A stretch of DNA of 64,000 nucleotides from Anaerolineae bacterium (GCA_035347995.1 DAOPQD010000001.1:46012-110011); one strand, 5' to 3'. Counted from the stretch's first letter, positions 45,062-63,290 are shown. Notes: generated by a model from the sequence alone, not told the origin. Translations and numbers: made by a program.

Positions 45062-45156
45062 TGCCGGGGATGAGTGAGCGGGCCACCGACATGTGGCCCG
45101 CTTGCAGTAACGGGCTCCCTCTCAAAAAAACAACGCGCTTCAGCGCCGTCGTCTGG

Positions 45157-45198
45157 GTCAGGCTGGAGATGGAATCCCCAGCCTGACTTTATTTTTGC
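45157..45198 (+). terminator. Rho-independent terminator of secF; the hairpin is a copy of the REP-like module X
   Basis: gtcaggctgg-agatggaatcc-ccagcctgac followed by TTTATTTTTG. The stem sequence GGCTGG(A/G)GAT...CCCAGCC recurs at ~49790 and ~63025. Confidence 0.7.
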
Positions 45199-45229
45199 GT
45201 GACCCCCATTCGGTGCTATAGTGCTGCGT

Positions 45230-48200
45230 ATGCGGTTTCTGACTCCAAACAGCTTGTGGCTTCTGGCCCTGGCGCTGCCCATCATTGCCCTCTATCTGCT
45301 GCGCCTGCACCGACGGGAGACCCCTGTCGCCAGCGTGTTGCTCTGGCAGGCGGCGGCCGTCGAGCGTCGCGCCAATCGCCCCTGGCAGAAATTACGCCGT
45401 CACTGGCTGTTGGCGCTGCAGCTGCTGATTCTGGCGACGCTGGTCGCGGCGGCCGCTCACCCTGCCGTTCCCGCGCCGTCAACGCCGCAGGGACGGCTGT
45501 TGATCCTGCTGGACGCTTCCGCGAGTATGCAGGCGCGCCGCGAGGACGGCAACACGCGCTTCGAGGCGGCGCTCGCGGAACTGCGGGCGCTCTCTGAGGC
45601 GCTGGATGCGCGCAGCCGGGTGACGCTCATCACCACGAGCGCGACACCGCAGGTGGTGTTGCGCGACGGGGATGCTGCGGCGTTGCGGCGGACGCTCCCC
45701 GCGCTGCAGCCGACCGATGGCGGCGCCGATTGGGACGCGGCGGCGAGTCTGGCGCTCGGCCTCGCGGCCGGGGAAGAGGTCACGACGCTGGTGTTCACCG
45801 ATGCGGCGCTGGCGGAGTCCCTGCCCCCTCTGCCGGGCCGGGCGCAGCTCTTTACCGTAGGGGAGGCCGCCCCCAACGTGGGACTGGTGGATTTTTCTCT
45901 CCGCCGCAGCGCCGAGACTTTCACCGCGTTTGTGCGTGTGCTGAACGCCGGCCCGGCGCGACAGGTCACATTGCTGTTGCTTGCCGGCAGTGAAGTCCTC
46001 GCCCGTCAGGCGCTGGAGCTGCCCGCTGCGGGCGAGGTGACGCTCTCTTTCCCGGATCTGCCCACCTGGGGGTGGTTCGAGGCGCGCCTTGAGGACGCCG
46101 ATGATCGTTTCCCTTTGGATGATCGCGCCTGGGTGACACCGCCGCTCTCTGGCAGCGGGCAGGTGCTGCTGGTGACGTCGGGCAACCGCTTCCTCGAACT
46201 GGCATTGCGCGCCCTGCCGGGGATCGCCGTGCAACAGGCGACGACGCTGCCCCAAGACACCGCCGAGATGAGCGCCGCGGTGTTGGACGGCGCAGGCAGC
46301 GGGGGGACGTTCAGCGGCCCGGCGTGGTTGATTGCCCCCGGCGCGGGGACGCCCTGCGGCGAGCCGACAGGTGTTTTCACGCCGACAACGCCCCTGCGCA
46401 CCGGGTCCCATCCGCTGCTGGAATATGTCACCTGGGATGACGTGCACATTGCCCGCGCCACACGCTATGCCGCGCCCGCCGACGCCGTGACCTTGCTGGA
46501 AACGGCGGAAGGCCCCTTGCTCTGGGTGCTGAACCGGCCAGGGCAGCGGCTTATCTGCCAGGCGTTTGCCCTGCAGGACTCCGATCTGCCGCTGCGGGTG
46601 GCTTTCCCCATCCTCACCAACAATCTGATGGGCTGGCTGCTGCCGCAGACGTCACAGGCGCCGATTACCCCCCTGCCGGCAGGACAGCCCTGGACGCCAG
46701 CGCTCCCTCTCGCGGCGACGGCGGCTGTGTTGGTCACACCCACGGGGGAGCGCGTGGACTTGCTGGACGTGACAGCGTCCCTTCCGCAGCGCGCGGGGCT
46801 GTACCGCCTGGAATTGGAGACGGCGGGCGGGCCGGCAACGCACTATGTGGCGCTGTCGTTGCTCGATGCGGCGGAAAGCGATCTGCACCCCCATCCGCTG
46901 ATGATCGAGGGGCAGGCGCCTTTGAGCGCTGCCCCCGGCGCGACCGGTTGGCGCGACTTCAGCCGCTGGGTCGCTGCGGCGGCCCTCGCGTTGTTGCTCC
47001 TCGAAGGGGCGCTCTGGTGGGGGCGCGCGGCTGCCTGGCATGGGGTGCGCGCGGCCCTCTCCGCGTTGCGCTATGACTGGCGCCCTGTGGCGTTGCGGCT
47101 GATCCTGGTAGGGGCATTGATCCTGGCCCTCGCGGACGTGCGCCTGCCCCAGGCGACGCGCAATCTGGCGACGGTGTTCGTCGTGGATCGGTCTGCGAGC
47201 GTCGCGGCGGAGGAGGGGGAGATTGAGGCGCTATTGACCGCTGCCTGGGAGGCCAAAGGCGCGCAGGACCGCGCCGCGGTGGTCGTTTTTGGCGGGGAAG
47301 CGCGGGTCGCACAGCCGTTGTCTGAGGGGTCTTTCGCGGCTGATCTGCGCCTGGCGCCCCAACCGGATGCCACCGACATTGCCGCTGCCGTGCGGTTGGG
47401 GGCGAGCCTCGTCCCTGAGGGAGCGCCGGGGCGGCTGGTACTCATCACCGATGGGCTGGAGACGCGCGACGATGGGGCGACTGCCCTGCTTCAGGCACGT
47501 GCGCGGGGCCTGGAGACGCTGGTGGCCGCCGTGACGCCGGCGGCGTCGGCGGAAGTGTGGATCGAGGCGACGCGCCTGCCCGCGCGGGCCTATCCGGGGG
47601 ACACAGTGGCGGTTGCTGTGACGCTGGGGGCGACGGCTGCTCAGCCCGTCCGCCTCACCTGGGCGGCAGGTTCGCAAGAAGGGGATGTTGTGTGGGAGGT
47701 CTCCCGTGGGCAGGGCAGGTATTTGTTCACCTTCAGTGCGCCAGAAAGGGGATGGGTGCCCGTGCGTTTTTGCGTGGCGGCGGAGGCGGATTTTTTCGTG
47801 GAAAACAACTGTGGCGGCGGTTGGCTGCGCGTGGAAGGGGTGCCTCGCGTGCTCATTGTGGGGGCGGTGGAGGAACGGCAGGCTTTGGCGGCGGCGTTGC
47901 GCGCCACCGGCCTGGAAGTGGTGGAACTGCAGCCGGAGGCGCTGCCGTTCACTGCTCCGGCCTTGGGCGACTATGCTGCGGTGATCCTGGTCAACACGCC
48001 CGCCCGCGCTTTGCCGTTGCAGGCCGGCTCAGCGCTGCAAGCTTATGTCCGCGATCTGGGCGGGGGCCTGGTGACGCTCGGCGGACCGGAAAGCTACGGG
48101 GTGGGTGGATGGTCTGCCACCGCTCTGGAGGCGGCGTTGCCCGTCTCCACGCAGGTGCAGGATCCACGCCGGTTTCCTCCGCTGGCGATGGTCATCGTGA

Positions 48201-49705
48201 TTGACAAATCGGGCAGCATGGCAGAGTCGGACGCGGAAGGGGGGACTCCAAAAATCCGGCTTGCGGCGGAAGCGGCCGCGCGTGTGGCGGAGGCATTGAA
48301 CGACAACGACGCGCTCGCGGTGGTGGCCTACGACGATCGGCCGGCGGACACTCTGGGTCCGGTGTCGGGGAGCGAGCGGCAGCTGTTGCTCGGACGTTTG
48401 TCGCAGTTGCAGGCGGGCGGCGGCGGCATCTACGTGCGCGACGGCCTGGCCTATGCCCGGCAGCTGCTCGCGGAGAGCTTCGAGCCGCTGTCGGAGCAAC
48501 AGCGGCATGTGCTGTTGGTGGCGGATGGCAGCGACGCGGAACAACAGGCGGGCGCGCTGGCGCAGGTGGCCGCTTTGCGCGCTCAGGGGGCGACGGTGAG
48601 CGTGATCGCGATCGGCGCTGGCGGTGATGTCCCCTTTCTGCAGGAGGTGGCGCGTCAGGGCGAGGGGCGCTTCTATCTCACGGAGCGTGCTGCGGACCTG
48701 CCGGTGATTTTCACGGAGGAACTGGCTCACACGCGACGCTCCTACATCGTCGAGCAGAGCTTCTCTCCTATCGCCGGAATGGCCTGGGAGCCGCTGGAGA
48801 GCTTCACGGCGCTGCCAGCTCTGGCGGGATATGTGGCGACGACTCCCAAACCCGGCGCGGATGTGCCGTTGTGGGGCGCCGTGACCGGGGATCCACTGCT
48901 GGCAGCGTGGTCCTATGGCTTGGGGCGCGCTGTGGCCTGGACCTCTGATGCGACAGGTCGCTGGGCCGTGGAGTGGCTGGGCTGGGAGGACTTCGCGCGC
49001 TTCTGGGGTGATGTGGTGCGGTGGGTGTTGCCCGCACCCGCGGAGGAGGGGGTGACGCTGAACGTCGCCGCGGAGGATAGACAGGCGCGCGTCACCCTCG
49101 ATGTGCTGGATCCGACGACGGGCCGCTATGTGGATGGCCTGGATCTCGTGCTGCAGGCGTCGCAGCTGGAAGCCAGGGTGTCTGTCCCGCCGACGGCATT
49201 GCGCCAGACGGCGCCGGGCCGTTATGAGACCACCCTGCCCCTGGGGGATGACACTGCCCCGTGGCTTTTCCATGTCACTGGCGCATTGCAGGCTACCGCG
49301 GGATGGATGCCGCCCTACGCGGCCGAATTCGTGCCGGGCGATGCCGCCGCCGCGACCGCGCGCTTGATCGCCCGGGGACAGGCGCAGCCTCTCACGGCGC
49401 CGGAACAGGCGTTTGCGCCGACCCTGCGCGGACGTCAGGCAGGAGCGCCGCTGGCTCCCTGGTTGGTCACCATCGTGGCGTGGCTCTGGCCCCTCGATAT
49501 TGCCGCGCGGCGCCTGGGGATTTCATGGGACGAGGTGCGGCGGTGGGGAAGGCGTTGGCGCAAGAGTGGTCGGAGGGAATCGCGTTCTGCATCGCGGAGC
49601 GTCGCGTCCCTGCCGGTGGAAAGCCCGCCTCCGGCGCCGCCGCCATCTCAGGAAGAAGCGCTGGCGGCGCGGCTGAAGGAGCGCTTACGCGGGTCCCGGC
49701 GCTGA
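45230..49705 (+). CDS. BatA-like multi-VWA fusion protein (N-terminal double-TM BatA domain, three vWFA domains, GATase1-like/DUF1355-like domain, C-terminal TM and Arg/Ser-rich tail)
   Basis: The start is taken at ATG 45230 (the track's GTG is at 45221). The N-terminus MRFLTPNSLWLLALALPIIALYLLRLHRR is the BatA/TIGR02226-type pattern. VWA MIDAS motifs are LLILLDASASM, VFVVDRSASV and MVIVIDKSGSMAESD...AYDDRP..QAGGGGIYVRDGLAYA. The GATase1-like segment is RVLIVGAV...VILVNTPARALP...GGGLVTLGG. A TM helix (WLVTIVAWLWPL) is followed by the tail RRWGRRWRKSGRRESRSASRS..PPPAPPPSQEE. No MoxR ATPase gene is adjacent. Confidence 0.75.
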   Translation: MRFLTPNSLWLLALALPIIALYLLRLHRRETPVASVLLWQAAAVERRANRPWQKLRRHWLLALQLLILATLVAAAAHPAVPAPSTPQGRLLILLDASASMQARREDGNTRFEAALAELRALSEALDARSRVTLITTSATPQVVLRDGDAAALRRTLPALQPTDGGADWDAAASLALGLAAGEEVTTLVFTDAALAESLPPLPGRAQLFTVGEAAPNVGLVDFSLRRSAETFTAFVRVLNAGPARQVTLLLLAGSEVLARQALELPAAGEVTLSFPDLPTWGWFEARLEDADDRFPLDDRAWVTPPLSGSGQVLLVTSGNRFLELALRALPGIAVQQATTLPQDTAEMSAAVLDGAGSGGTFSGPAWLIAPGAGTPCGEPTGVFTPTTPLRTGSHPLLEYVTWDDVHIARATRYAAPADAVTLLETAEGPLLWVLNRPGQRLICQAFALQDSDLPLRVAFPILTNNLMGWLLPQTSQAPITPLPAGQPWTPALPLAATAAVLVTPTGERVDLLDVTASLPQRAGLYRLELETAGGPATHYVALSLLDAAESDLHPHPLMIEGQAPLSAAPGATGWRDFSRWVAAAALALLLLEGALWWGRAAAWHGVRAALSALRYDWRPVALRLILVGALILALADVRLPQATRNLATVFVVDRSASVAAEEGEIEALLTAAWEAKGAQDRAAVVVFGGEARVAQPLSEGSFAADLRLAPQPDATDIAAAVRLGASLVPEGAPGRLVLITDGLETRDDGATALLQARARGLETLVAAVTPAASAEVWIEATRLPARAYPGDTVAVAVTLGATAAQPVRLTWAAGSQEGDVVWEVSRGQGRYLFTFSAPERGWVPVRFCVAAEADFFVENNCGGGWLRVEGVPRVLIVGAVEERQALAAALRATGLEVVELQPEALPFTAPALGDYAAVILVNTPARALPLQAGSALQAYVRDLGGGLVTLGGPESYGVGGWSATALEAALPVSTQVQDPRRFPPLAMVIVIDKSGSMAESDAEGGTPKIRLAAEAAARVAEALNDNDALAVVAYDDRPADTLGPVSGSERQLLLGRLSQLQAGGGGIYVRDGLAYARQLLAESFEPLSEQQRHVLLVADGSDAEQQAGALAQVAALRAQGATVSVIAIGAGGDVPFLQEVARQGEGRFYLTERAADLPVIFTEELAHTRRSYIVEQSFSPIAGMAWEPLESFTALPALAGYVATTPKPGADVPLWGAVTGDPLLAAWSYGLGRAVAWTSDATGRWAVEWLGWEDFARFWGDVVRWVLPAPAEEGVTLNVAAEDRQARVTLDVLDPTTGRYVDGLDLVLQASQLEARVSVPPTALRQTAPGRYETTLPLGDDTAPWLFHVTGALQATAGWMPPYAAEFVPGDAAAATARLIARGQAQPLTAPEQAFAPTLRGRQAGAPLAPWLVTIVAWLWPLDIAARRLGISWDEVRRWGRRWRKSGRRESRSASRSVASLPVESPPPAPPPSQEEALAARLKERLRGSRR

Positions 49706-49784
49706 GGCAGCGCGTCAAGCTCAGAAAGATGCCATGTGCTGGCGCACCTCATCCAGGCATGAAAATGTAAGTCGTGAGGCGTGA

Positions 49785-49849
49785 GTTCGGCTGGGGATTC
49801 CATCCCCAGCCTGACAGGAGCCAACCGCGCTGAAGCGCGGTGTTGGAGG
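49785..49849. repeat. REP-like mosaic palindromic element (modules X and Y) downstream of the VWA gene
   Basis: gttcggctggggattccatccccagcctgacaggagccaaccgcgctgaagcgcggtgttgg. Hairpin 1 is ggctgggga/tccccagcc and hairpin 2 is caaccgcgc-tgaa-gcgcggtg. It is related to the copies at ~45160, ~63021 and ~63241. Confidence 0.7.
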
Positions 49850-49940
49850 ACGTAGCAGCCCCGGGGGCCAGGAATTTCTAATCTTACTTGTGAAATTCGT
49901 GTTCATTCGAGGCCATTTTCGAAGGAAGATCTCATACAGA

Positions 49941-49971
49941 CAAGGCCCCGATCACCGCGATCGGGGCCTTG
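49941..49971. terminator. 13-bp perfect stem hairpin between the convergent VWA gene and rpiR-like gene 1
   Basis: caaggccccgatc-accgc-gatcggggccttg lies 23 nt downstream of the RpiR-1 stop (49994) on the minus strand. It has weak flanking T-runs. Confidence 0.5.
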
Positions 49972-49993
49972 TGGCGAATTTGCTTCCGTGGGA

Positions 49994-50833
49994 TTAGTTG
50001 CCGGGGGCTTCTTGCCTGGCAGCCTCGATGCCGCTCTGAACCTCGGCCGCATGGGCCAGAGTGGCTTCCTTTTTGCTGCTTAGCAGGGCGTCCTTGAGCG
50101 TGGCGATAATCAGCAGCGAGATGGCGAAGCTGCCGATATCGAGCGGGCTTTGGCCGGGGGTGGTGATGGCCATCTCGGCCTCGCGCGCGGCCAGGGTCGT
50201 CCCGCTGTCGGCAATGCAGACGGTAGGGATGCCTTTGGCGTTCGCCAGTTTAACCGCGTGACCGGTGTCCACGCCGGGGGTGCCAAAGACCAGCGCCAGC
50301 AGCACATCCCCAGCCTGCATGTCGTTAGTGGCCTTGGCGACTTCCACCATACTGGGGGCGAAGTGGAAGACGGGAATCCCCAAGGGGACGAGGCTTTCCG
50401 CCAGATACCGGGCAATGTCGTAGCTGGGGAATTCCCCGACGATCCAGATGCGTTCTGCATTCTGGAGCATCTTCAACGCCTGGGCCAGGTGAGGGGCCTC
50501 GGTGGTTGCAAACTGCTCCAGGTCCTGGGCCTTACTGGCAAAGAGCGCCTGCACGAGATCCTCTTCGTTGCCTGCCTCGACGGCCTTGTGATAGGTCTGC
50601 GCGATCTCCCCGCGCACGTAGGCCTTGATTTCCCTGGAGAGCTCCCGGAACCCGCTATAGCCGATTTCCTGTGAGAAACGCACGACGGTCGCCGGATCAA
50701 TCCCAACGCGCCGGGACAGTTCTGTCGCTGTCAGGAAGGCAACGTCAAGGGTTTGATTGAGGATGAAATCTGCCAGGCGGCGAAATCCAGGGGTCAAATT
50801 AGCATAATGCTCTTCAATCCGTTCTCGAAACAT
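49994..50833 (-). CDS. RpiR/MurR-family transcriptional regulator (HTH_6 + SIS domain), paralog 1
   Basis: The N-terminal HTH is LTPGFRRLADFILNQTLDVAFLTATELSRRVGIDPATVVRFSQEIGYSGFRELS. The C-terminal SIS domain is RIWIVGEFPSYDIARYLAE...GDVLLALVFGTPGVDT. Confidence 0.8.
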   Translation of the reverse strand: MFRERIEEHYANLTPGFRRLADFILNQTLDVAFLTATELSRRVGIDPATVVRFSQEIGYSGFRELSREIKAYVRGEIAQTYHKAVEAGNEEDLVQALFASKAQDLEQFATTEAPHLAQALKMLQNAERIWIVGEFPSYDIARYLAESLVPLGIPVFHFAPSMVEVAKATNDMQAGDVLLALVFGTPGVDTGHAVKLANAKGIPTVCIADSGTTLAAREAEMAITTPGQSPLDIGSFAISLLIIATLKDALLSSKKEATLAHAAEVQSGIEAARQEAPGN

Positions 50834-50888
50834 GGTAGTCTCCTTTCCTTATACTGAATGCGTTGATGCTGCAAGGCCGAATCAGCTG

Positions 50889-51764
50889 TCAATCTTTCGT
50901 CTGAGGGAGGATTGCCTCGTAAGCGGCAGTGTGGGTGCGCAGCTCCAGGATTTCGCTGAGATACTCGTTGTAGGCGGCGAAGGACTCTGCCGTCTTGGCC
51001 GCCGTGGTGCCCGCCAGCGCTTCCCAGATCAGCGCGATGATCGCGAGCGCGGCGCCGGTGTTCGGGATGCCGGTCTCGCCGGCGGTGGGAACAAGGACGA
51101 CCAGTTCGGCTTCGTGGGCCGGCGCGCCGAGGGTGTTGTCGGCGATCGTGATCGTGTGCACGCCTTTCTCTCGCGCCATCCGCACCAGATACCCGGAATC
51201 AATGTCCGGCACGCTGATGGCCAGCACCAAGAGTGCGTCTCCCGGCTCCATCTTGCTGAGGGCAGCGGCGACGTTGAGCATATCCGGCGCAAACGCCCTG
51301 GCCTGGATGTCGGCGACTTGCAACATCCGTGCCAGGAACTGCGCGATGGCTTGCTGGGGGCCTTCCCCTGTGATCCAGACGCGCGGCGCCTGTTTGAGGA
51401 TCCGGAGCGCTTCACCGAGTTTGGCCGTCTCGGTCATGGAAAAATCTGCGAGGTTTTGGCGTGTGCTGTCCAGAAGCTGGTGCACCAGCGCCTCTTCACT
51501 TTCGGCCTCGACGCTTTTGCGGTAGGTAGTCGTCACCTGATCGCGCACGTAATGTTTGATCTCGTGTGAGAGCTCGCGATACCCGCTATAGCCGATCTCC
51601 TGCGCAAAGCGGACGACGGTGGCCGGATCCACTCCTACACGGCGGGAGATTTCGGTGACGGTGAGGAAGGCCGCGTCGAGTGTGTGGTCCATGATGAAAT
51701 CGGCCAATTTGCGAAAACCCGGCGTCAAACTATCGTAATACTGTCGAATTTGCTCTTGAAACAT
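50889..51764 (-). CDS. RpiR/MurR-family transcriptional regulator, paralog 2
   Basis: The start is taken at MFQEQIRQYYDSL (51764) with RBS AAGGAGA 8 nt upstream; the track ORF extends to 51803 without an RBS. The HTH is LTPGFRKLADFIMDHTLDAAFLTVTEISRRVGVDPATVVRFAQEIGYSGYRELS, and a SIS domain follows. Confidence 0.8.
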   Translation of the reverse strand: MFQEQIRQYYDSLTPGFRKLADFIMDHTLDAAFLTVTEISRRVGVDPATVVRFAQEIGYSGYRELSHEIKHYVRDQVTTTYRKSVEAESEEALVHQLLDSTRQNLADFSMTETAKLGEALRILKQAPRVWITGEGPQQAIAQFLARMLQVADIQARAFAPDMLNVAAALSKMEPGDALLVLAISVPDIDSGYLVRMAREKGVHTITIADNTLGAPAHEAELVVLVPTAGETGIPNTGAALAIIALIWEALAGTTAAKTAESFAAYNEYLSEILELRTHTAAYEAILPQTKD

Positions 51765-51825
51765 GGTTGAAATCTCCTTACTTTGATTTGCTGATGGTGA
51801 CAATGCTGGAACGATATCCTTACGG

Positions 51826-52752
51826 TCACAAAATAGGAGGACGATTTGCCTGGCTCAGTATCTTAGACCAAATGGCAAGGGCCAGGCCCGGGTCAGCGTG
51901 TCCCTGCTGACGCAACTCTACCAGCTGTTGGAGATACTTTTGCCGTAATTCTTCCTGCTGTTGAAGGCTTTCCTTTCGCTGTTGGCTGATCATGTTGGCA
52001 ATGGCTGCCAGCACTGCAGCGATGAGCGCCAGACCTGACATGGCGGAGGGCGTGCCGAGAGAAAAAGCGAGGGTCAATTGCGCCTCTCTGGCCGCAGCCT
52101 GCATCCCATTGCTGCTGATGCAGAGGGTGCGCCCGCCTTTTGCCTGCCCCAGACGCAGAACGTAGCTTAGATTGAGTTGCGGGCCTTCATGGCCTAAGGC
52201 CAACAGCGCATCTCCCGCCTGGACCTGATCCAGGTACATCGCCGTGCTCAACAGGTTGGATTCAAACGCTTCCGCCGCCAATCCGAGATTTTGCAGTTCT
52301 TGCGCGAACGCCTGTCCCAAATGTATCGCCGAGCCTTCTGCGGTGATCCAGATAGCGGGAACTGCGTTGAGCGTCGCGCCGATTTCTTCCAGCAGCCGCA
52401 AGTCTGCAGGGGAGAGGTATTGGAGCGGTTGGTAGATCTTTTGGAGCTGGGCTGCCAGACGCTGTTCTTCCGTTGCCTCTGATGCCTTTGAGTCCATGTC
52501 CGACAGCTGGCGCGGCGCGGTGATGTGTTCGTGAATGTACTGTTTGATCTCCTGGGAAAGTTCGCGATAGCCCGTATAGCCCAGTTCTTGCGCAAACCGC
52601 ACGACGGTCGCCGGATCAACTTCCAACCGCTGCGCGAGCTCGGTCGCCGTGAGGAGCGCCGCCTCGAGAGTGTGGTTCAGGATGAAATCGGCCAGCCGGC
52701 GGAATCCCGGGGAGAACTGCGCGTAGCCGTTTCTGATGCGGTCTTTAAACAT
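51826..52752 (-). CDS. RpiR/MurR-family transcriptional regulator, paralog 3
   Basis: The HTH is FSPGFRRLADFILNHTLEAALLTATELAQRLEVDPATVVRFAQELGYTGYRELS. A SIS domain follows, and the C-terminal tail is longer. The gap to paralog 2 is only 22 nt. Confidence 0.8.
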   Translation of the reverse strand: MFKDRIRNGYAQFSPGFRRLADFILNHTLEAALLTATELAQRLEVDPATVVRFAQELGYTGYRELSQEIKQYIHEHITAPRQLSDMDSKASEATEEQRLAAQLQKIYQPLQYLSPADLRLLEEIGATLNAVPAIWITAEGSAIHLGQAFAQELQNLGLAAEAFESNLLSTAMYLDQVQAGDALLALGHEGPQLNLSYVLRLGQAKGGRTLCISSNGMQAAAREAQLTLAFSLGTPSAMSGLALIAAVLAAIANMISQQRKESLQQQEELRQKYLQQLVELRQQGHADPGLALAIWSKILSQANRPPIL

Positions 52753-52773
52753 TTGAATCCCTTGTTAATGTTT

Positions 52774-52841
52774 GCATATGCATTGTAACTGGTATCAACC
52801 AGTTGTGAGGCTCAGTTTTTGAATACATGTATTATATCACA
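52774..52841 (-). promoter_or_regulatory. Candidate promoter/operator of the RpiR triple operon: extended -10 (TGaTATAAT on the minus strand) plus an 18-bp perfect palindrome and a GCATATGC palindrome in the leader
   Basis: On the plus strand, attatatcac at 52831-52840 corresponds to minus-strand gTGaTATAATac. AACTGGTATCAACCAGTT lies at 52787-52804 (arms AACTGGT/ACCAGTT) and GCATATGC at 52774-52781. All lie within ~90 nt upstream of the paralog 3 ATG at 52752. Confidence 0.5.
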
Positions 52842-53603: not shown

Positions 53604-53608
53604 GGGAG

Positions 53609-55026: not shown

Positions 55027-55028
55027 CG

Positions 55029-55409: not shown

Positions 55410-55422
55410 TTGCCCCTCGACT

Positions 55423-56703
55423 TCAGGCCTGCGGCGGCCCCGAGACACCCAGCGCGAAGGCGGCGGGATTGAGCCAGCGCTGTGCGACGCTTTGGATGTC
55501 CGCTGCGGTGATCGCGGAAATGCGTTCTTCGTAGCGCAGCAGATAATCCAATCCCAACTCGAAGCGCTCGATGTGGGTGAGGTTGCCGGCGACGCCCTCG
55601 TTCGTCTCCAGGCGCAGCGGCAGGCTGCCGATGAGGTAGGCCTGGTTGTCCGCGAGTTCAGCGGCAGGGACGGGTTCCTCGTGCAGGCGCTGGACTTCGT
55701 CCAGGATGAGGGCGATGGCTTTCTCGACCTGGGCGGGATGCACGCCGGCGCGGGCCTGCCAGGGCCCCGGGCCGATAGCGCTCTCGAGGCTGCTGTAGAC
55801 GTAGTAGGCGAGGCCATTTTGCGAACGCACTTGCTCGCCGAGCCGTCCCATCATCCCAAAGATGCCCAGGACGGTGTTGGCGAGCTGGCACGCGAGGAAA
55901 TCCGGCGAGCGTCGCGCCGGTCCGGGCCAGCCGAGCACCAGGTCGGTCTGCGTTTTTTCCGGCAAGGGGACGTATTGCTCGCGGCGCGTGGTAAGCGGCG
56001 GCACTGCGGGCAGCGGCGGGCGCGGGGGACGGGCGCCTTCCCAATCCCCAAAGGCATTTTGAACGGCGGTGAGAGCGGCCTCTACCTTGACGGCGCCGAC
56101 GATGGTGATGACCATCCCCTGTGGCTTGATGCAGCGTTCGTGGAAGCTGCGCAAGTCGTCGCGGCGCAGGCGTCTCACACTGTCCAGGGTGCCGCTGACC
56201 TGGCGGTGGTAGGGATGCGCAGCGGGATAGGCGAGTTCGTGAAAGGCGCGGGAGGCGCGGGCGCGGGTGTCGAATTCTTGCTCACGCAGGGCGCTGAGCA
56301 GCTCGGCGCGCGCGCGTTCGACTTGCTCTGGCGCGAAGGTGGGATTTCGCATCACGTCGCTGCAGATGTCCAGCAGCAGCGGCAGCTGCTCCGTCAGCCC
56401 CTTGGCACCGAAGGCGGTGCTGTGCACACCGGCAGAAAAGCCGAAGGTCGCACCGACGGACTCCACTTCCTCATACAGCTGCTCGAAGGGACGGCGACGG
56501 GTGCCGCGCTCCATGACGTCCACGGCCAGACTGGCGAGGCCTTCCTGGTCTTGGGGGTCGTCTTCCGCTCCGGCGAGCAGATAGCCGTCAAGGACCACGG
56601 ACGGGCTGGCAAAGTTCTCGCGGGCCAGGACGGTGATGCCGTTGGGCAGAGTCTGCCGCAGCACATCGGCGGGGCCGGGTAACGCAACCTTGTTTCGGCG
56701 CAT
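55423..56703 (-). CDS. M16-family peptidase homolog lacking the HxxEH zinc motif (likely non-catalytic partner subunit)
   Basis: The start is taken at MRRNKVALPG (56703) with RBS AAGGAGA. There is an M16 fold pattern (N-terminal LPNGITVLARENF..), but no HxxEH is found in the N-domain. Confidence 0.7.
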   Translation of the reverse strand: MRRNKVALPGPADVLRQTLPNGITVLARENFASPSVVLDGYLLAGAEDDPQDQEGLASLAVDVMERGTRRRPFEQLYEEVESVGATFGFSAGVHSTAFGAKGLTEQLPLLLDICSDVMRNPTFAPEQVERARAELLSALREQEFDTRARASRAFHELAYPAAHPYHRQVSGTLDSVRRLRRDDLRSFHERCIKPQGMVITIVGAVKVEAALTAVQNAFGDWEGARPPRPPLPAVPPLTTRREQYVPLPEKTQTDLVLGWPGPARRSPDFLACQLANTVLGIFGMMGRLGEQVRSQNGLAYYVYSSLESAIGPGPWQARAGVHPAQVEKAIALILDEVQRLHEEPVPAAELADNQAYLIGSLPLRLETNEGVAGNLTHIERFELGLDYLLRYEERISAITAADIQSVAQRWLNPAAFALGVSGPPQA

Positions 56704-56730
56704 ACAATCTCCTTCGAATTTTTTCTCCCC

Positions 56731-56759
56731 CTCCCCGACGGCGCATCGCCGTCGGGGAG
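56731..56759. repeat. 13-bp perfect-stem hairpin in the intergenic region between the two M16 peptidase genes
   Basis: ctccccgacggcg-cat-cgccgtcggggag is flanked by G/C-rich runs and lies ~25 nt upstream of the downstream M16 gene RBS. It is a candidate mRNA processing/stability element, or a REP-like element. Confidence 0.5.
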
Positions 56760-56870
56760 GGGGCAGGGGGTGGGGCAAAAGCTACAGATTACAAAGGTTC
56801 AGCCATCGCCGTCTGGCTACCTGGCGCCAGGCTGAACAGTTACAAAAATATAGAAACCGTGCCTACGGGT

Positions 56871-56905
56871 CCCCGTTCGCACGTTCCCCCGTTCGCACGT
56901 TTGCG
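56871..56905. repeat. 8-bp-period tandem repeats (AACGTGCG/AACGGGGG type) just downstream of the catalytic M16 gene stop
   Basis: ccccgttcgcacgttcccccgttcgcacgtttgcg. In gene (minus) orientation this reads cgcaaacgtgcgaacgggggaacgtgcgaacgggg, the same family as the repeats at 5753-5785, 23817-23865 and 62350-62379. Confidence 0.65.
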
Positions 56906-56927
56906 CGTTACTTTGCGTCCCCGGCGG

Positions 56928-58217: not shown

Positions 58218-58253
58218 GAGCGCCGGATGGCTGGCCGGCGCCAGAAAGGGTTT

Positions 58254-59585: not shown

Positions 59586-59630
59586 GCATGAACTCCTTTA
59601 CCTGTTGGGATACGAATGAAGATGATACCA

Positions 59631-59668
59631 CGAATCAGCGAATCGGCGAGTAAGCGAATAAGCGAATC
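59631..59668. repeat. 8-bp-period tandem repeats of GCGAAT(N2) type in the ugd upstream region
   Basis: cgaatcagcgaatcggcgagtaagcgaataagcgaatc. In gene orientation this reads gattcgct|tattcgct|tactcgcc|gattcgct|gattcg, about 45 nt upstream of the ugd ATG. Confidence 0.65.
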
Positions 59669-59683
59669 TGTGGAGTATTGCCC

Positions 59684-60505
59684 TCACAGGAACAAGATCA
59701 GCGCGCTCATTCCTGCGGCGATGAGGAGGGCGACGGCGTCGCCGGCGCGAAAGTGTAACTCGGTCATCGAGGTGCGCCCCTTGCCGCTGTGATAGCCCCG
59801 CGCTTCCATCGCCAGCGCCAGCGCCTCGGCCCGTTGCAGGCTGTTGAGGAAGAGCGGCACGAGTAACGGCAGGGTCTGACGTACCCGTTGCAGGATGCTG
59901 GTCTTGCCCGTGCCCCATTCCGCGCCGCGAGAGGCCTGCGCCTTGGCGATGCGTTCAGCCTCCAGCGCCAGGAGCGGCAGAAAACGCAAGGTTACCTGCG
60001 CCATGAGGACGAGGTCCTGCGTGGGCAGGCCGAGGGTGGTGAAGGGCCGCAACAACGTCTCGAGGCCGTGGACGAACTCCGAGGTGGAGATGATGGCCGA
60101 TGTGAGGCTGATGAGCAAAATCAAGGCGATGAAACGCGCGATGATGATGACGCCCGCCAGTACGTCTTGCGCCGAGACTTGCAGGGGTCCCAGGCTTACC
60201 AGCGCGGGGACATCGGCGGCCTGCGGCCCGATCAACATCTGCAACACGGCGAGGAATAAGATGAAGGGCAGTGGCGCGAGCAATCCGCGCAGGGCGTAGT
60301 TCAGCGGGACGCGGGCGAACAGCAGCGCCGCCAACGCGATCCCCAGGGCCAGGCCCAGCCCCTGGAGGTGCCGCGCGGCAGTGATGGCGATCAGCAGGCA
60401 GGCCCCGCTCAACAATCGCGTGCGCGGGTCGAGCCGGTGCAGCGGCGAGCCTGTCGCCAGGTATTGGCCGATGGTGACGTAACGCTGAAACTCGAAGTCA
60501 GGCAC
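59684..60505 (-). CDS. ecfT: Energy-coupling factor transporter transmembrane (T) component
   Basis: CbiQ/EcfT family pattern: the N-terminus YVTIGQYLATGSPLHRLDPRTRLL, about 5 TM helices, and the conserved C-terminal arginine-containing coupling helices (ARxxxG-like: AMEARGYHSG). Confidence 0.85.
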   Translation of the reverse strand: MPDFEFQRYVTIGQYLATGSPLHRLDPRTRLLSGACLLIAITAARHLQGLGLALGIALAALLFARVPLNYALRGLLAPLPFILFLAVLQMLIGPQAADVPALVSLGPLQVSAQDVLAGVIIIARFIALILLISLTSAIISTSEFVHGLETLLRPFTTLGLPTQDLVLMAQVTLRFLPLLALEAERIAKAQASRGAEWGTGKTSILQRVRQTLPLLVPLFLNSLQRAEALALAMEARGYHSGKGRTSMTELHFRAGDAVALLIAAGMSALILFL

Positions 60506-62219
60506 GAGGGATGAGCTCCTCCAATTGAGCTGCGAGAGCTTCCGCGGTCAGCACGCCGGGCGAGAGGGGCCAGCCGCGCGCGCGCAGCGCGCTGGCAATT
60601 TCCGCAACGGCGGGCAGACCCAGCCCCAGCGTGCGCAACTGTCCTTCATGGGAAAAGACCTCCACCGCTGGGCCGCTCAGGAGGCTGCGGCCGTCTTCCA
60701 TCACCGTCAGCGTCTCCGCCAGCCGCGCCAGGTCTTCCATGCGATGGGAGGAAGTCACCAACGTCATGCCGGCGCCGCGGAATGTCTGCAGATGCGTCAG
60801 CAGCTCGCGCCGGGAGAGGGGGTCGAGCCCGGCGGTCGGCTCGTCGAGCAGCAAAATGGCGGGCTGAAGCGCGAGAACCGCGGCCAGGGCCACTTTGCGG
60901 CGTTCCCCGCCGCTCAGCGCGAAGGTCAGACGATCCTTGAAGGCGTTAAAGTCGAGGCCGACCAGCTCCATGGCCCACCGCACGCGCTCGCGCAGAGCCT
61001 GGCCCTCCAGCCCCTGCAGCCGCGGCCCGAAGGCAATTTCATCCCCGACGTACTGTTCGAAGATTTGCAGCTCCGGCATCTGGAATGCCAGCCCGGCGGT
61101 GCGACGGACGGCCCGCAGGTCCAGGCGCGGGTCGTTGAGGTCGAATTCGCCGATGCGCACGCGGCCTTCCTGCGGACGCAGCAAGCCGTTAAGATGCTGC
61201 AGCAGCGTGGATTTTCCTGAGCCTGTCGCGCCGAGTAAGCCATGCGCTCCATGGTCGGGGATGCTCAGGGTCACATTGCGCAGCGCGCGGTGTTCGAGGG
61301 GCGTGCCCTTGAGGTAGACGTGGCCTAGTGCCTCGACCTCGATCAGCTCGGGGCCGACGACGTGCGGTTCTGGCGGGGGCGGGGGCGGCGCCGGCGTCGC
61401 GGTGACCCGATGCGGCAGCGCATCGAGGGCGCTGGTCAGCGCGGGGGCGGTGAGCAGATTCGGCGGCAGGGCCGGGAAACTCTGGCGCAGGCGACGGCTC
61501 AGCAGCGCGATGGGGGGCAGTTCCAGGCTGAGTGTGTGCAGCGTGTCCTCGTCGGCGAAGACCTCTGACGGTGGGCCATCGAGAGCCACGCGGCCGCGAT
61601 CCATCACGATCACGCGCCCGGCATCGGTGGCCTCGTCCATGAAGTGTGTGATGGTGATGACAGTGACGCCTTCCGCGTGCAGCTGCGCCATCATCAGCCG
61701 GACGGTGCGCCGCCCGGCGGGGTCGAGCATCGCAGTGGCCTCGTCGAAGACGATGCAGCGCGGTTGCACGGCGAGCACACCGGCTAACGCCGCGCGCTGC
61801 ATCTGTCCTGCCGAGAGGTGATGGGGCGGGCGCAGGCGCACTTCCCAGAGACCGACCGTCTCCAGAGCCTGGCGCACTCGCGCGCGGATTTCATCGGGCG
61901 GCAAGCCCATGTTTTCGGGGCCGAAGGCGACATCTTCCTCGATAGTCGCGGCGATGATCTGATCATCGGGGCGTTGGAAGACCATGCCTACCGTCTGACG
62001 GATGGCGAGACGATGCGTGCGCTCGCGGGTGTCCATCCCGGCGATGGCAACTGTCCCGGCGGTGGGGATTAGCAGGGCGTTGAGGTGGCGCGCGAGCGTG
62101 GACTTGCCGGAGCCGTTCGCCCCAACGATGGCGACATATTCGCCGGCTTCGATGCGAAGCGTGACGCCGTCGAGCGCGGGAGGTGTGTTGGGGTCAGGCG
62201 CGGCGTAAGTAAAACGCAC
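60498..62219 (-). CDS. ecfA: Fused duplicated ECF transporter ATPase (EcfA1-EcfA2 fusion, two ABC nucleotide-binding domains)
   Basis: Two Walker A motifs (GANGSGKSTL and GATGSGKSTL), two ABC signatures (LSAGQMQRAAL and LSGGERRKVAL) and two Walker B motifs (IVFDEATAMLD and LLLDEPTAGLD). It overlaps ecfT by 8 nt. Confidence 0.85.
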   Translation of the reverse strand: MRFTYAAPDPNTPPALDGVTLRIEAGEYVAIVGANGSGKSTLARHLNALLIPTAGTVAIAGMDTRERTHRLAIRQTVGMVFQRPDDQIIAATIEEDVAFGPENMGLPPDEIRARVRQALETVGLWEVRLRPPHHLSAGQMQRAALAGVLAVQPRCIVFDEATAMLDPAGRRTVRLMMAQLHAEGVTVITITHFMDEATDAGRVIVMDRGRVALDGPPSEVFADEDTLHTLSLELPPIALLSRRLRQSFPALPPNLLTAPALTSALDALPHRVTATPAPPPPPPEPHVVGPELIEVEALGHVYLKGTPLEHRALRNVTLSIPDHGAHGLLGATGSGKSTLLQHLNGLLRPQEGRVRIGEFDLNDPRLDLRAVRRTAGLAFQMPELQIFEQYVGDEIAFGPRLQGLEGQALRERVRWAMELVGLDFNAFKDRLTFALSGGERRKVALAAVLALQPAILLLDEPTAGLDPLSRRELLTHLQTFRGAGMTLVTSSHRMEDLARLAETLTVMEDGRSLLSGPAVEVFSHEGQLRTLGLGLPAVAEIASALRARGWPLSPGVLTAEALAAQLEELIPRA

Positions 62220-62349
62220 GTCATGAAATTCGATGAGCGCCGTCGTGCACCTCCTGCTCTCTGAAATGGATCGGCCTTGCAGGCCGCATTATAACCTTGG
62301 TGAGGGGGAGTGTCAAAGCGGCGCTTCGCGGTATAATAGCCGTGGCAAA

Positions 62350-62379
62350 GACGTGGGGACGTGCGAACGTGGGCACGTG
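62350..62379. repeat. 8-bp-period tandem repeats ACGTG(G/C)G type between the -10 element and the RBS of the ECF S-component gene
   Basis: gacgtggg|gacgtgcg|aacgtggg|cacgtg. It is preceded by TATAAT (62332-62337) and followed by the RBS GAAGGAGGAGG. Confidence 0.65.
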
Positions 62380-62406
62380 TTTATTTTTGAAGGAGGAGGT
62401 ATTCAA

Positions 62407-62964
62407 ATGCAGGAGTCGCGTACGCGGAAAGTTGTGATTGCCGGGGTCCTGGGGGCGATAGCCGCTTTTCTCGGTTGGACACATTGGGGTTTCATCCCCT
62501 GGTTTAGCGGCGCTTCGCTGACGATCATGCACGTGCCGGTCATCATCGGCGCGGTGTTGGAAGGGCCGGTGGTGGGCACCGCTGTGGGCCTGATTTTTGG
62601 CTTGTTCAGCATGTTGCAGGCGGCGATCGCGCCCTCGGGGCCGACCGACGTGTGGTTCACCAATCCGGTGCTTGCGGTGTTGCCCCGGCTCTTTATCGGC
62701 CCGGTGGCGTGGCTGGTGTGGCGCGCGTTGCAGCGCTGGCCGGCCGCCGGCCTGATCGGCGCAGGGATCGCCGGGAGCCTCACGAACACGGTGCTGGTCC
62801 TGGGCGTCATTGGCCTGTTGGGATACGTGCCCTGGGCGGCGTTGCCCCCGATCGTCCTGGCGAACGGCCTGCCGGAGGCGGCGGCTGCGGCGGTCATTAC
62901 CCTGGTTGTGGTGGCCGCGTGGCGCCGCATTGAAATCGGCAGGCGTAAAGGCGCCAATCTCTAG
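62407..62964 (+). CDS. ECF transporter substrate-specific (S) component, putatively pantothenate (PanT-like) given the adjacency to coaX
   Basis: The start is taken at MQESRT (62407) with RBS GGAGGAGG; the track ORF begins at an upstream in-frame codon at 62233. It is a small hydrophobic protein with about 6 TM helices. Substrate assignment is by gene context only. Confidence 0.6.
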   Translation: MQESRTRKVVIAGVLGAIAAFLGWTHWGFIPWFSGASLTIMHVPVIIGAVLEGPVVGTAVGLIFGLFSMLQAAIAPSGPTDVWFTNPVLAVLPRLFIGPVAWLVWRALQRWPAAGLIGAGIAGSLTNTVLVLGVIGLLGYVPWAALPPIVLANGLPEAAAAAVITLVVVAAWRRIEIGRRKGANL

Positions 62965-63020
62965 CACAAAAAATGTGGATTGTGAGCCGTGAATCGTAAG
63001 CGGAGATTGCAACGGCTCGC

Positions 63021-63075
63021 CAGTTCGGCTGGGGACGGAATTCCTGGCCTGGCAGGAGTCAACCGCGCTGCTGAA
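63021..63075. repeat. REP-like mosaic element copy (modules X and Y)
   Basis: agttcggctggggacggaattcctggcctggcaggagtcaaccgcgctgctgaag shares agttcggctgggga...cctg.caggag.caaccgcgctg with the copy at ~49785. Confidence 0.6.
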
Positions 63076-63240
63076 GTTTAAAAAATAATCCGGTAATAAA
63101 CGGGATTTTCCCCATTCCCCCCCCGGCCTCCCTCCACCGGGGGAAGGGGGGGAGAAAAAATAAAGGTTTTTTGCAGGCGGGCGCCGCCCGCCTGCAAAAT
63201 CCCACAAAAAAGTTCCCCTTTCCCCCGCGTGCGCGGGGGG

Positions 63241-63290
63241 AAGCCAACCGCGCTGAAGCGCGCTGTTTAGGGAGCTCGCTTCAGCGAACT
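63241..63290. repeat. REP-like element copy (module Y) with additional hairpin
   Basis: gccaaccgcgctgaagcgcgctgtttagggagctcgcttcagcg contains the module Y core ccaaccgcgctgaagcgcg plus an inverted repeat cgctgaagcg / cgcttcagcg. Confidence 0.6.

Follow-up and report, generated by a model that had tools for sequence, protein, structure and literature searches.

Enterobacteria, streptococci, neisseriae and cyanobacteria are well known to carry interspersed mosaic repeats. The BOX elements of Streptococcus pneumoniae and the enterobacterial BIMEs are modular or mosaic, non-coding, intergenic, multicopy and hairpin-rich; their modules are ordered and in part optional, the number of internal units varies, they are often co-transcribed with neighbouring genes and they carry no transposase. 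REP sequences, which are associated with a cognate RAYT (Y1 transposase) gene, are imperfect palindromes of 20-40 nt with a GTAG-type tetranucleotide at the 5′ end, and REPs and BIMEs are found singly or in clusters of alternating orientation, mostly at the 3′ ends of genes or between convergent genes. The STRRs of heterocystous cyanobacteria are tandem 7-nt intergenic units, the copy number of which is hypervariable between strains. For Anaerolineae, a limited literature search found no description of an interspersed mosaic repeat, and nothing specific on intergenic or STRR-type repeats.

The repeat described here, which we term type I, is of this known kind; what is unusual is its placement, anchored in leaders and in one orientation. 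We examined it in a 64-kb stretch of Anaerolineae DNA (the window), in strains and relatives, and in metagenomes. Type I shares with BOX and the BIMEs a multicopy, modular, intergenic build, the hairpins and the lack of an encoded transposase. It differs in that its sequence is unrelated, its host phylum is Chloroflexota, and it is polar, with arrays of 7- and 8-nt microsatellites and a tail bearing a Shine-Dalgarno (SD) motif that abuts a start codon. Unlike REPs and BIMEs, type I keeps its modules in one fixed order and orientation and ends at the start of the downstream gene; the GTAG head was absent from ~110 aligned copies and no alternating orientation was seen, which argues against an original prediction that the repeat was REP-like. 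The GTGAG arrays of type I resemble STRRs in being tandem 7-nt, intergenic and hypervariable, but their unit sequences are different and they form the arms of a larger composite element.

Putative mobile promoters have been defined as sequences of at least 50 nt and at least 80% identity within ~150 nt upstream of coding sequences that are not homologous (Matus-Garcia et al. 2012, PMC3488235). Type I is likewise homologous non-coding DNA upstream of non-homologous genes, with many members and with variation between close strains, and its tail-proximal modules, common to the regions upstream of upp, thrS, ndk, pfkB, anmK, ppk2 and others, fall within that operational definition. It is, however, much longer than the 50-100 nt cores of the survey (PMC3488235), apparently lies downstream of the native promoter or riboswitch, and no sigma-70-like promoter consensus was found in it.

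Modular architecture of type I and the nested E2 repeat

The original prediction had described two hairpins, X and Y, and both were found where it had placed them, recurring far above shuffled expectation. X has the form GGCTGGRGA-N5-TCCCCAGCC and is present at 45161-45183 and 49789-49811; its pattern gave 3 matches in the window, against 0.00 expected from shuffles. The 19-mer of Y, CCAACCGCGCTGAAGCGCG, is exact at 49821-49839 and 63244-63262 and recurs with 3 mismatches on the minus strand at 45134-45152 (3 matches in the window, against 0.08 expected from shuffles). X is a perfect palindrome whose loop is found in both flip states, as TGGAA in 62 cases and TTCCA in 11. Stem mismatches, used as a test of strand, showed no clear excess of G.U (42) over A.C (29), and the RNAalifold covariation term was ~0 because the copies are too alike. 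In the predicted fold, Y can also pair with a further module, Z, as an alternative to the hairpins that each would form by itself.

Alignment of the copies places X and Y as internal hairpin modules of a non-coding composite interspersed repeat, type I. Rather than the 65-nt X/Y pair first proposed, the unit measures ~200-380 nt in the aligned copies without nested inserts and 200-450 nt overall, and its eight or more modules follow the order head, 7-nt GTGAG repeats, V, X, Y, optional Z, W, optional U, 8-nt TTCGC repeats and tail. These ~200-380 nt of ordered modules are shared at ~90% identity, so that the similarity is not confined to generic GC-rich terminator stems. The head always follows GGAG-N5 in the aligned copies and carries a pseudo RBS-ATG that mimics an SD-ATG junction, and the tail carries the motif ATTTTCGAAGGAG / CTCTATTTTCGAAGGAG. 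Among ~110 aligned copies, the sequence before X is CAGTTT, GGGTC or GGTTC and that before Y is GAGCCAA. Both the GTGAG and the TTCGC arrays vary in unit number, with the GTGAG array being hypervariable between strains (L075 against L154). In the aligned copies we read GAAAATGTGAG and CTCTATTTTC, at the inner ends, as an imperfectly inverted pair; the outer ends, inferred from filled and empty alleles as starting with ACGCCATGTGC and finishing with TATTTTCC (..TATTTTC), show no such inversion. For a full element, a very stable fold is predicted (-139 kcal/mol, z -4.5).

The open reading frame of the head (MCWRT...) was considered as a coding sequence and rejected: its length ranges from 8 to 37 aa, the number of 7-nt repeats shifts the frame, with compensating 1-nt offsets among head variants, and the ATG is replaced by AGG in several copies. 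Rfam gave no gathering-score match on the elements in the window, at three sites searched at permissive thresholds or in 20 sister-species loci; a neighbouring cobalamin riboswitch was matched, and the elements themselves gave only weak, chance-level matches.

A second family, E2, nests in or beside type I, and the mosaic structure results from this. Judged by its sequence, E2 is a ~300-nt deletion derivative of an IS66-family insertion sequence. We found 25 pairs of 15-nt inverted repeats (GGTAACTGTTCAGCC, beginning GTAAC, and its reverse complement) spaced 250-300 nt apart from start to start, the elements being 269-305 nt long and without an ORF. A 1.15-kb intermediate (L119, 362-1512) has the left and right ends of E2 and its 3′ 250 nt, together with remnants of zf-IS66 (E 3e-12) and DDE_Tnp_IS66 (E 4e-9). 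Target-site duplications of 8 bp are typical of IS66. The flanks of E2 match at 5-6 of 8 positions (CCTCTGCG/CCTGTGAG; AATGTGCG/CCTGTGAG), and most E2 copies share one ancestral insertion site.

Type I modules in the 64-kb window

Modules of this mosaic are found at nine or more loci of the window, which exceeds the minimum of four originally proposed. The first of those proposed, copy A (45129-45190, minus strand), lies between the secF stop codon (45061) and the start of a VWA gene (45230). It had been taken for X alone, and is in fact a reversed fragment of X (45161-45183) plus Y (core 45134-45147), in the same order as in copy B and at nearly the same spacing (10 nt between X and Y in one copy, 11 nt in the other). 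On the plus strand, copy A can be read by eye as a terminator, with, 96 nt past the secF stop, a hairpin of 10 bp or more followed by TTTATTTTT. The terminator scan left this plus-strand site unflagged because an A.C mismatch exceeds its loop limit; on the minus strand it flagged the Y hairpin and a T-run. Copy A is retained in 6 of 6 strains and at a sister-species locus (L029), and the reversed fragment behind secF may have been co-opted as a terminator.

Copy B (49727-49928, plus strand) consists of a head (49727-49778; GCCATGTGCTGGCGCACC..ATGAAAATGTAAGTCGTGAG), X (49789-49811), Y (49818-49846) and, closing with CCATTTTCGAAGGAAG, a variant W/tail module (49849-49928). Its predicted RNA fold has an energy of -81.6 kcal/mol (z -2.6). 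Copy B has no downstream gene, and positions 49943-49972 form the terminator hairpin of a convergent gene. In many metagenome copies this variant tail stands immediately before a gene start. All 6 strains compared have copy B.

Between the ECF-S stop codon (62964) and the coaX ATG (63411) lies a composite copy (62968-63398, plus strand). Alignment with sister copies identified V (62989-63025), a degenerate X (63027-63049; GGCTGGGGACGGAATTCCTGGCC) and the 5′ half of Y (63059-63070). An internal fragment of E2 follows (63071-63241), with E2 positions 147-251 matching at 88.6% in a module BLAST, and then Y (63242-63267), Z (63270-63294), W (63295-63325), U (63327-63356) and a variant tail (63357-63398). 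An 11-nt direct repeat, CAACCGCGCTG, stands on either side of the 172-nt interruption, and because Y is cut after CAACCGCGCTG there is no Y hairpin at 63021-63075. By this alignment, the two copies predicted at 63 kb are the two parts of a single element, separated by 172 nt from a second repeat. The predicted pairing of X with Y stands at 49785-49849, whereas at 63021-63075 X is degenerate and Y is cut, and the supposed Y alone at 63241-63290 runs on into further modules, Z, W, U and the tail, as far as the start of coaX.

Other loci carry type I modules in different combinations. The leader of a peptidase M16 gene (56704-56907, minus strand) joins 8-nt repeats of the ACGTGCGA type to the 5′ half of E2, which supplies its left inverted repeat, GTAACTGTTCAGCC, and its first G/C hairpin (~90% identity to E2 over 122-126 nt), and ends in AAAAAATTCGAAGGAG-N5-ATG (ATG at 56703); the spacer before this gene is 224 nt in the window and 83 nt in the relative L047. 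A short-form type I (23191-23326, minus strand), with the head variant ATGTTCCTGCAGCACACC.., 7-nt GTGAG repeats, a V-type hairpin and the tail CTGATTTCTATTTTTTGAGGAG, fills the spacer from a ferredoxin stop codon to the ATG (23190) of an aldehyde ferredoxin oxidoreductase gene. This short form is also seen as a 140-nt insertion polymorphism (L161 against L065) and as an alternative cassette (L054 against L022). The leader of the ferredoxin gene (23752-23864, minus strand) carries 8-nt repeats (GAACATGG/GAACGGGC/GAACGTAA), TTCGC-type 8-nt repeats and a tail, between a promoter-like TTGCCG-16-TATAAT, picked out by eye, and the ferredoxin ATG (23751).

Repeat family D16 forms a mini-leader at 5744-5829 (plus strand), made up of GCAAGCATGAGAACGT, (GACGTGCGAAC) repeats and CCGCTGACTTGCTGATTCGCTTATTTTCAGGGGAG and abutting the ATG (5830) of a GAF sensor kinase gene. 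The ECF-S mini-leader (D16/I17; 62344-62406, plus strand; ATG 62407) has the 8-nt repeats GACGTGGG GACGTGCG AACGTGGG CACGTG followed by TTTATTTTTGAAGGAGG, with a hairpin and U-run just 5′ of the SD. A conserved promoter, GTGTCA-16-TATAAT, precedes it; two relatives keep the promoter, although their leaders for this gene are unrelated in sequence. Finally, TTCGC-type 8-nt repeats (CAGATTCGCTTATTCGCTTACTCGCCGATTCGCTGATTCG; 59635-59668, minus strand) are found upstream of the conserved extended -10 (TGGTATCAT) of a UDP-glucose dehydrogenase gene, and so precede a promoter instead of forming part of a leader; they are missing from the orthologous spacer of L047.

We observed no strain polymorphism at the window's own copies, comparing A and B in 6 strains and the coaX element in 10. 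The coaX composite is fixed, and the site identical, in all 10 strains, which gives no support for ongoing mobility in the species of the window.

Turnover between strains and the spread of type I

Among 185,579 species genomes, the exact X pattern occurred at 22 loci in one sister-species MAG, Gw_SlDig_bin_283, which matches the window at 95.6% identity across 4.8 kb. Elsewhere it was found once in bin_20, once on a probably mis-binned contig and in two unrelated-looking sequences. Several contigs end, or hold N-runs, within a type I element. A scan of metagenomes for Y returned at least 120 stretches, and the 80 loci examined contained 88 distinct copies; no module was present in 42 kb from three more distant relatives. 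In viral contigs X had no match, and a single match to the Y 19-mer, within a phage terminase small-subunit gene (where it codes PTALKR), was taken as chance. The prediction of a small, dispersed, mosaic and palindrome-rich family is borne out, with numerous further copies genome-wide and in relatives, and on this distribution type I proliferated recently in one clade of digester Anaerolineae.

Marked differences were apparent between close relatives. The window has 447 nt between ECF-S and coaX, whereas the orthologous spacer of GCA_026645815.1 has 50 nt and that of a further relative 18 nt. Filled and empty alleles with flanks of 97-99% identity were found for L080/L095, L168/L147 and L161/L065, and L022 and L054 hold different cassettes at one site. 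Where the junctions are readable (L168/L147 and L022/L054), the insert or cassette lies between two tail- or SD-like motifs; for L168 against L147, GAGGAG is present on both sides of the insert and the native spacer is retained beside the gene. The filled allele of L080/L095 differs from the empty one in its left flank, and so is explained by neither simple target duplication nor simple crossover; the left junction of L161/L065 is also unlike its empty allele. Indels distinguishing L077 from L124 and L072 from L093 were set aside as gene-level changes unrelated to the repeats. As read from these alleles, type I has been gained, lost and swapped between close strains, with junctions in the tail/SD motif. 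Since the insertions are polymorphic between strains, their suggested use in strain typing is plausible.

We consider it probable that type I is a lineage-specific composite repeat, anchored in leaders, which spreads non-autonomously under selection for orientation and with nesting of E2. It would be a non-autonomous DNA element that spreads through recombination at the tail/SD motif, by gene conversion between dispersed copies or by a putative site-specific system. In the ~1.1 Mb of loci fetched, no type I transposase, recombinase or autonomous copy was found. This limited sample contained 139 head and 169 tail motifs, almost all head-to-tail distances were <700 nt, and two longer intervals hold ordinary genes.

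A different account of the same junctions would make type I a classical MITE, moved in trans by a transposase that targets and duplicates the SD hexamer (GAGGAG/AAGGAG), this duplication being the reason for the SD-like flanks on every copy. The pair L168/L147 is compatible with duplication of GAGGAG, the head always follows GGAG-N5, and there is imperfect inversion between GAAAATGTGAG and CTCTATTTTC at the inner ends. Moreover, the co-resident E2, with its 15-nt terminal inverted repeats, ~300-nt length, lack of an ORF and IS66-remnant intermediate, resembles IS-derived MITEs and shows that deletion-derived MITEs arise in these genomes. For type I itself, neither inverted repeats at the outer ends nor a clean target duplication was found, and no autonomous partner was found in ~1.1 Mb. 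The left junctions of L080/L095 and L161/L065 do not resemble the empty alleles, and the cassettes of L022/L054, which share tail motifs, look more like exchange than independent insertion. We therefore regard a classical MITE as unlikely.

Junctions in the tail motif, exchange of cassettes at one site and heads that mimic an SD-ATG junction could also suggest a dedicated putative recombination system, which would recognise ATTTTCGAAGGAG-N5-ATG and install, swap and stack structured non-coding modules exactly at start codons. Type I is similar to integron cassettes and attC sites in being bounded by a repeated, recombination-prone motif and in having cassettes interchangeable at one site. In contrast to integrons, its units are gene-less and, instead of being arrayed beside an integrase, are scattered genome-wide next to housekeeping genes; nor does the tail motif have attC architecture. 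Such a system seems to us quite unlikely. If it existed, the lineage would be rewiring the mRNA stability and translation of arbitrary genes, in a way loosely integron-like for UTRs.

Placement in leaders and its consequences

A long ORF begins right after the tail in 13 of 21 sister-species copies. Of the 58 tail-bearing metagenome copies, 29 have an ORF of 100 aa or more behind them, a few more have shorter ORFs truncated by the contig end, and ~20 have the head of another element. The genes downstream of metagenome copies include upp, pfkB, anmK, bglA, ugd, ppk2 and tldD; overall they are functionally unrelated (thrS, ndk, coaX, upp, ppk2, transporters, kinases). One element separates a cobalamin riboswitch from its gene, one separates a T-box from thrS, and one is intercistronic. 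Where visible, including at L013, native promoters lie upstream of the elements. A consensus scan, limited to sigma-70 for promoters, detected no terminator-like and no sigma-70-like sites on the sense strand, and the E2 hairpins are terminator-like on the antisense strand. An ORF-based mirror control for orientation (43 of 53 on the same strand against 25 of 53 mirrored) was noisy, and is unusable as a statistic because the DNA is GC-rich. These placements show that the copies reside in leaders and intercistronic spacers, transcribed to judge from their position, co-oriented with the downstream gene and ending at its ribosome-binding site.

Under the non-autonomous spread that we favour, selection would retain only the orientation permissive for transcription. 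In the antisense orientation, G/C hairpins followed by T-runs would terminate the host gene; most copies would therefore be tolerated, selfish leader inserts. Effects of the elements on mRNA folding, stability or translation may also occur.

This placement bears directly on the original prediction that a 65-nt REP- or MITE-like X/Y element at the 3′ ends of genes had been domesticated as a terminator or mRNA stabiliser. By position, copies A and B are indeed downstream of genes, the plus-strand hairpin of copy A with its TTTATTTTT is conserved in the sister species, and the E2 hairpins read as terminators on one strand. Family-wide, however, the copies reach to the start codon of the gene that follows and finish in its SD region, some of them behind riboswitch terminators, within leaders that need read-through. 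X and Y are not followed by T-runs in the family orientation, where no terminator-like site was called, and only the reversed copy A reads as a terminator. With 200-450 nt of eight or more modules in a fixed order and orientation, unlike REP clusters, a domesticated 3′-end element is a distinctly improbable description of the family.

Strict orientation in leaders could also indicate a cis-regulatory RNA of a regulon, in which X, Y and the 7/8-nt repeats would be bound by one RNA- or DNA-binding regulator or act as an attenuator. The very stable predicted fold, the alternative pairing of Y with Z, the hairpin and U-run before the SD in the ECF-S mini-leader and the perfect palindrome of X, of a type bound by dimeric proteins, are all in keeping with this. 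Set against it are the functionally unrelated downstream genes, the variable presence among strains with 98% identical flanks, the same genes without elements in relatives, the stacking of elements behind existing riboswitches and the absence of covariation and of an Rfam match, and we find a regulon leader very unlikely. That type I elements are mobile promoters bringing transcription start signals to downstream genes, as their agreement with the operational definition (PMC3488235) might suggest, is extremely unlikely given full elements without a sigma-70-like site in a consensus scan for sigma-70 only, native promoters upstream where visible, and positions behind riboswitches and between cistrons.

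Type I, spreading as proposed through leaders in a single orientation, has consequences for its hosts and for the reading of their genomes. It is abundant enough to break MAG assemblies and it causes spurious small gene calls. Since it differs between strains that are 98% identical, it provides strain markers for a widespread digester organism. It stretches leaders to several hundred bases, even behind riboswitches, and its start-codon-anchored placement amounts to a natural experiment on how much structured RNA is tolerated in bacterial leaders. If the tail motif is truly a recombination site, it would represent a new way to move non-coding DNA.

Composition of the repeat

Both hairpin modules of the original prediction, X and Y, were found in the window at the places named. 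The X pattern GGCTGGRGA-N(3–12)-TCCCCAGCC gave three matches when the palindromic copy B (49727–49928, plus strand, after the VWA gene) is counted on both strands, compared to 0.00 in shuffled sequences. The Y 19-mer CCAACCGCGCTGAAGCGCG was exact at 49821 and 63244 and was present with three mismatches on the minus strand at 45134–45152; these three matches compare with 0.08 expected. The last of them lies in copy A (45129–45190, minus strand, after secF), which had been described as X alone and is therefore redescribed as an X+Y unit. On the minus strand it reads GGCTGGGGATTCCATCTCCAGCC-TGAC-N10-GCGCTGAAGCGC, the X-spacer-Y layout of copy B in reversed orientation, and other strains have a perfect Y stem here.

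In the surroundings of the hits in the Anaerolineae MAG Gw_SlDig_bin_283 (bin_283), the common sequence extends far beyond X and Y. The consensus of this composite repeat (type I) begins with a head, (GGAGACGCC)ATGTGCTGGCGCACAyCATCCAAGGATGAAAATG, followed by a variable number of 7-nt GTGAGTN repeats and hairpin V (GAGyCGT..ACGGCTC). X is next, then Y (CCAAC-CGCGC-TGAA-GCGCG-TT-GTTGG), an optional module Z (GCTCGCTTCAGCGAAC), W (CCCGGAATTCATTCCGGG), an optional U (CTGAGCGCAGCCTGAAGTTTGCG..), a variable number of 8-nt repeats (TTCGCTNN) and a tail (CTGATCTCTATTTTCGAAGGAG), with a start codon 3–11 nt further on.

Near 63 kb, where an X+Y pair (63021–63075) and a separate Y had been proposed, alignment gives a single interrupted type I element that extends to the coaX start at 63411. 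X is present in the proposed pair in degenerate form, and its Y is incomplete, being cut after CAACCGCGCTG. The order is V, degenerate X and the 5′ half of Y, after which 172 nt of other sequence intervene before Y, Z, W, U and a tail. The interruption has the 11-nt direct repeat CAACCGCGCTG on both sides and is an 88.6% match to the interior of E2, a second repeat family nested in or next to type I. The proposed total of four copies also has to be raised, as module searches and reading added members at 5744–5829, 23191–23326 (between two cistrons), 23752–23864, 56704–56907 (with a partial E2) and 62344–62406, all directly 5′ of a start codon and on the strand of the gene. TTCGC repeats at 59635–59668 are a further member, located upstream of a promoter and not at a start codon.

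A full type I element has a very stable predicted fold (−139 kcal/mol, z −4.5), in which G·U pairs join the GTGAG repeats on the 5′ side to the TTCGC repeats on the 3′ side. The consensus fold of the copies retains the X and W hairpins, and CGCTGAAGCG of Y is complementary to CGCTTCAGCG of Z. The covariation term of this fold was zero, giving the hairpins no covariation support, and stem mismatches (42 G·U versus 29 A·C) had no clear G·U bias. The X loop reads TGGAA in 62 cases and its reverse complement TTCCA in 11, which points to inversion of the palindrome at the DNA level.

Other repeats are present in the window. Three tandem paralogous RpiR-type (HTH_6/SIS) regulator genes (50607–52752; family D1) have ∼72% DNA identity over 227 nt, and the middle copy is truncated in strain L003. 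The recurrent coding repeats D2–D8 (786–15283), in very large GAF-domain sensor proteins (ORFs 5824–10308 and 10323–16817), are internal domain duplications with no relation to the intergenic repeats.

Placement relative to genes

The copies had been placed at the 3′ ends of genes. In bin_283 and in metagenomes they instead mostly precede same-strand ORF starts or another repeat. A long same-strand ORF follows 13 of 21 bin_283 copies at a fixed distance, and another repeat follows the remainder. Among the matches listed, 58 metagenome copies have a recognisable tail; 29 of these precede an ORF of at least 100 aa, a few more precede shorter ORFs clipped by the contig end, and ∼20 precede the head of the next element, which mimics SD-N5-ATG. 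The genes include those for uracil phosphoribosyltransferase, PfkB kinase, AnmK, beta-glucosidase, UDP-glucose dehydrogenase, PPK2 and TldD. Public gene calls contain a 41-aa ORF over copy A (45061–45186; L001 10927–11052), and element heads open small ORFs (MCWRT.., MFLRH.., VLAHIIQ..); these are probably spurious annotations due to the repeat.

A role as terminators had also been proposed, and only copy A fits it. By eye, the plus strand shows the reversed X hairpin after secF, then TTTATTTTT, then a TTGCGT-16-TATAGT sequence resembling a promoter, and lastly the start of the VWA gene. Because its loop, enlarged by an A·C mismatch, exceeds the limit of the scan tool, this hairpin went uncalled; on the opposite strand the tool called the Y hairpin of copy A with a T-run. 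No other copy supports termination, and the tool found no sense-strand terminator-like or sigma-70-like sites in the elements scanned. Within 45199–45232, the promoter-like sequence ends ∼8 nt before the VWA ATG at 45230; a leaderless or near-leaderless VWA mRNA is suggested.

At locus L012, a cobalamin riboswitch (2674–2821, minus strand; 46 bits, cut-off 31.5) with a terminator hairpin is followed by type I, E2, a partial element and then the start codon, in a leader of ∼900 nt. At L017 (1–92), a T-box clipped by the contig end, of which the 3′ part remains (E 5e-7), and its terminator come before a 330-nt element, with thrS after it. Inserted repeats of 330–900 nt thus part these regulators from their genes, raising the question of whether regulation still works. 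The type I elements would be transcribed as parts of leaders. The G/C hairpins of E2 have T-runs behind them on the antisense strand. Given transcription within leaders, the orientation bias may reflect selection against the terminating orientation; a mirror-image ORF control for orientation was too noisy for a clean statistic.

E2, gain and exchange

E2 is ∼300 nt long with 15-nt terminal inverted repeats (GGTAACTGTTCAGCC), of which 25 pairs were spaced 250–300 nt start to start. A 1.15-kb version (L119 362–1512) has the ends and the 3′ 250 nt of E2 and encloses remnants of an IS66-family transposase (zf-IS66, E 3e-12; DDE_Tnp_IS66, E 4e-9). E2 is therefore a MITE that arose by deletion from an IS66-family element. 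Most of its copies occupy an identical position in the type I head (AAAATGTG|E2|TGTGAG), which suggests one ancestral insertion that was later co-amplified with type I.

The ECF-S/coaX spacer is the same 447 nt in all 10 strains of the window species, compared to 50 nt in GCA_026645815.1 (with an ECF-S protein of 95% identity) and to 18 nt in a second relative. Beside coaX, both relatives have a recognisable native SD region, AGGAGACGTnnCTATG, so the element sits upstream of that SD. For the M16 peptidase, the spacer has 224 nt in the window and 83 nt in a relative, with CGAAGGAGATnGTATG common to both. The ECF-S promoter is kept in three relatives, each with a wholly different leader. Back-to-back divergent promoters at 62288–62337, a pair conserved in two relatives, comprise a perfect TTGACA-17-TATAAT towards the ecfA operon and GTGTCA-16-TATAAT towards the ECF-S gene.

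Metagenome strain pairs with 97–99% identical flanks differed by 586 nt of E2 and type I (present in L080, absent from L095), by 397 nt (present in L168, absent from L147) and by a 140-nt short form (present in L161, absent from L065). L022 and L054 differ in the cassette that they carry at one shared site, which lies between a tail-like motif and the SD of the gene. Two tail/SD-like motifs bound the insert of L168/L147 and the cassettes of L022/L054. In L168/L147 the gene keeps its native spacer beside it, and the left side carries the family consensus GGAGACGCC-ATG. For L080/L095 and L161/L065 the junction on the left is not clean. We infer the mechanism of type I spread from these junctions: they are a better fit to recombination inside the tail and 8-nt-repeat modules that are shared than to cut-and-paste insertion creating a target duplication of fixed length, without settling the matter.

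One intergenic spacer (L075 11100–11190, L154 6590–7200; flanks 93–95% identical) holds a heptamer microsatellite, with ∼500 nt of (GCTGGNN)n in one strain and a short (CATTACC)n run in the other. Its GCTGGTGG units are the E. coli Chi sequence.

Host range and classification

The window belongs to a 277.8-kb metagenome contig from digester sample JGI 3300010346, and its species is present in many assemblies. Across one genome per species (185,579 species), the exact X pattern gave 26 stretches. Twenty-two were in bin_283 alone, which bears out the expectation of further copies genome-wide. One was in bin_20, a MAG of the window species (99% identity), and two look unrelated. The other was on a 1.5-kb contig labelled Bacteroidales (L007; JBASHR010000100.1), nearly identical to a bin_283 contig carrying a type I element (L023) and probably mis-binned. 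Across secDF, bin_283 and the window share 95.6% identity, so bin_283 represents a sister species. Its contigs (L008–L032) start or end inside the element in L011, L021 and L030 and have N-runs within it in L009, L018 and L019; the repeat breaks up short-read assemblies of its host genomes.

The 20-nt Y pattern matched at least 120 metagenome stretches. The matches listed comprise 80 loci with 90 Y matches (88 distinct), nearly all with X before them and W or the tail after. In L049, L068, L081 and L098 the Y core GCCAAACGCGCTGAAGCGCGTTGCCGGAG lies beside a different hairpin (CCGGCGGATCAATCCGCCGG) on contigs with otherwise unrelated flanks; it may belong to a separate repeat family of another organism with one common module, or reflect convergence. 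No module was detectable in a total of 42 kb from three relatives further removed, 15 kb of it syntenic with a window region holding four element loci. The type I family is young and restricted to a narrow clade.

Against the proposed REP-like nature, the family fails the REP tests applied. E2 is a standard IS-derived MITE. In its workings, type I resembles BOX and BIME, which are modular interspersed repeats. It falls within the operational definition of putative mobile promoters (PMC3488235) but lacks a promoter consensus. Type I is a new, lineage-specific form of this known kind of repeat, unusual in its start-codon-anchored polarity, its SD-bearing tail and the cassette-like exchange at that tail.
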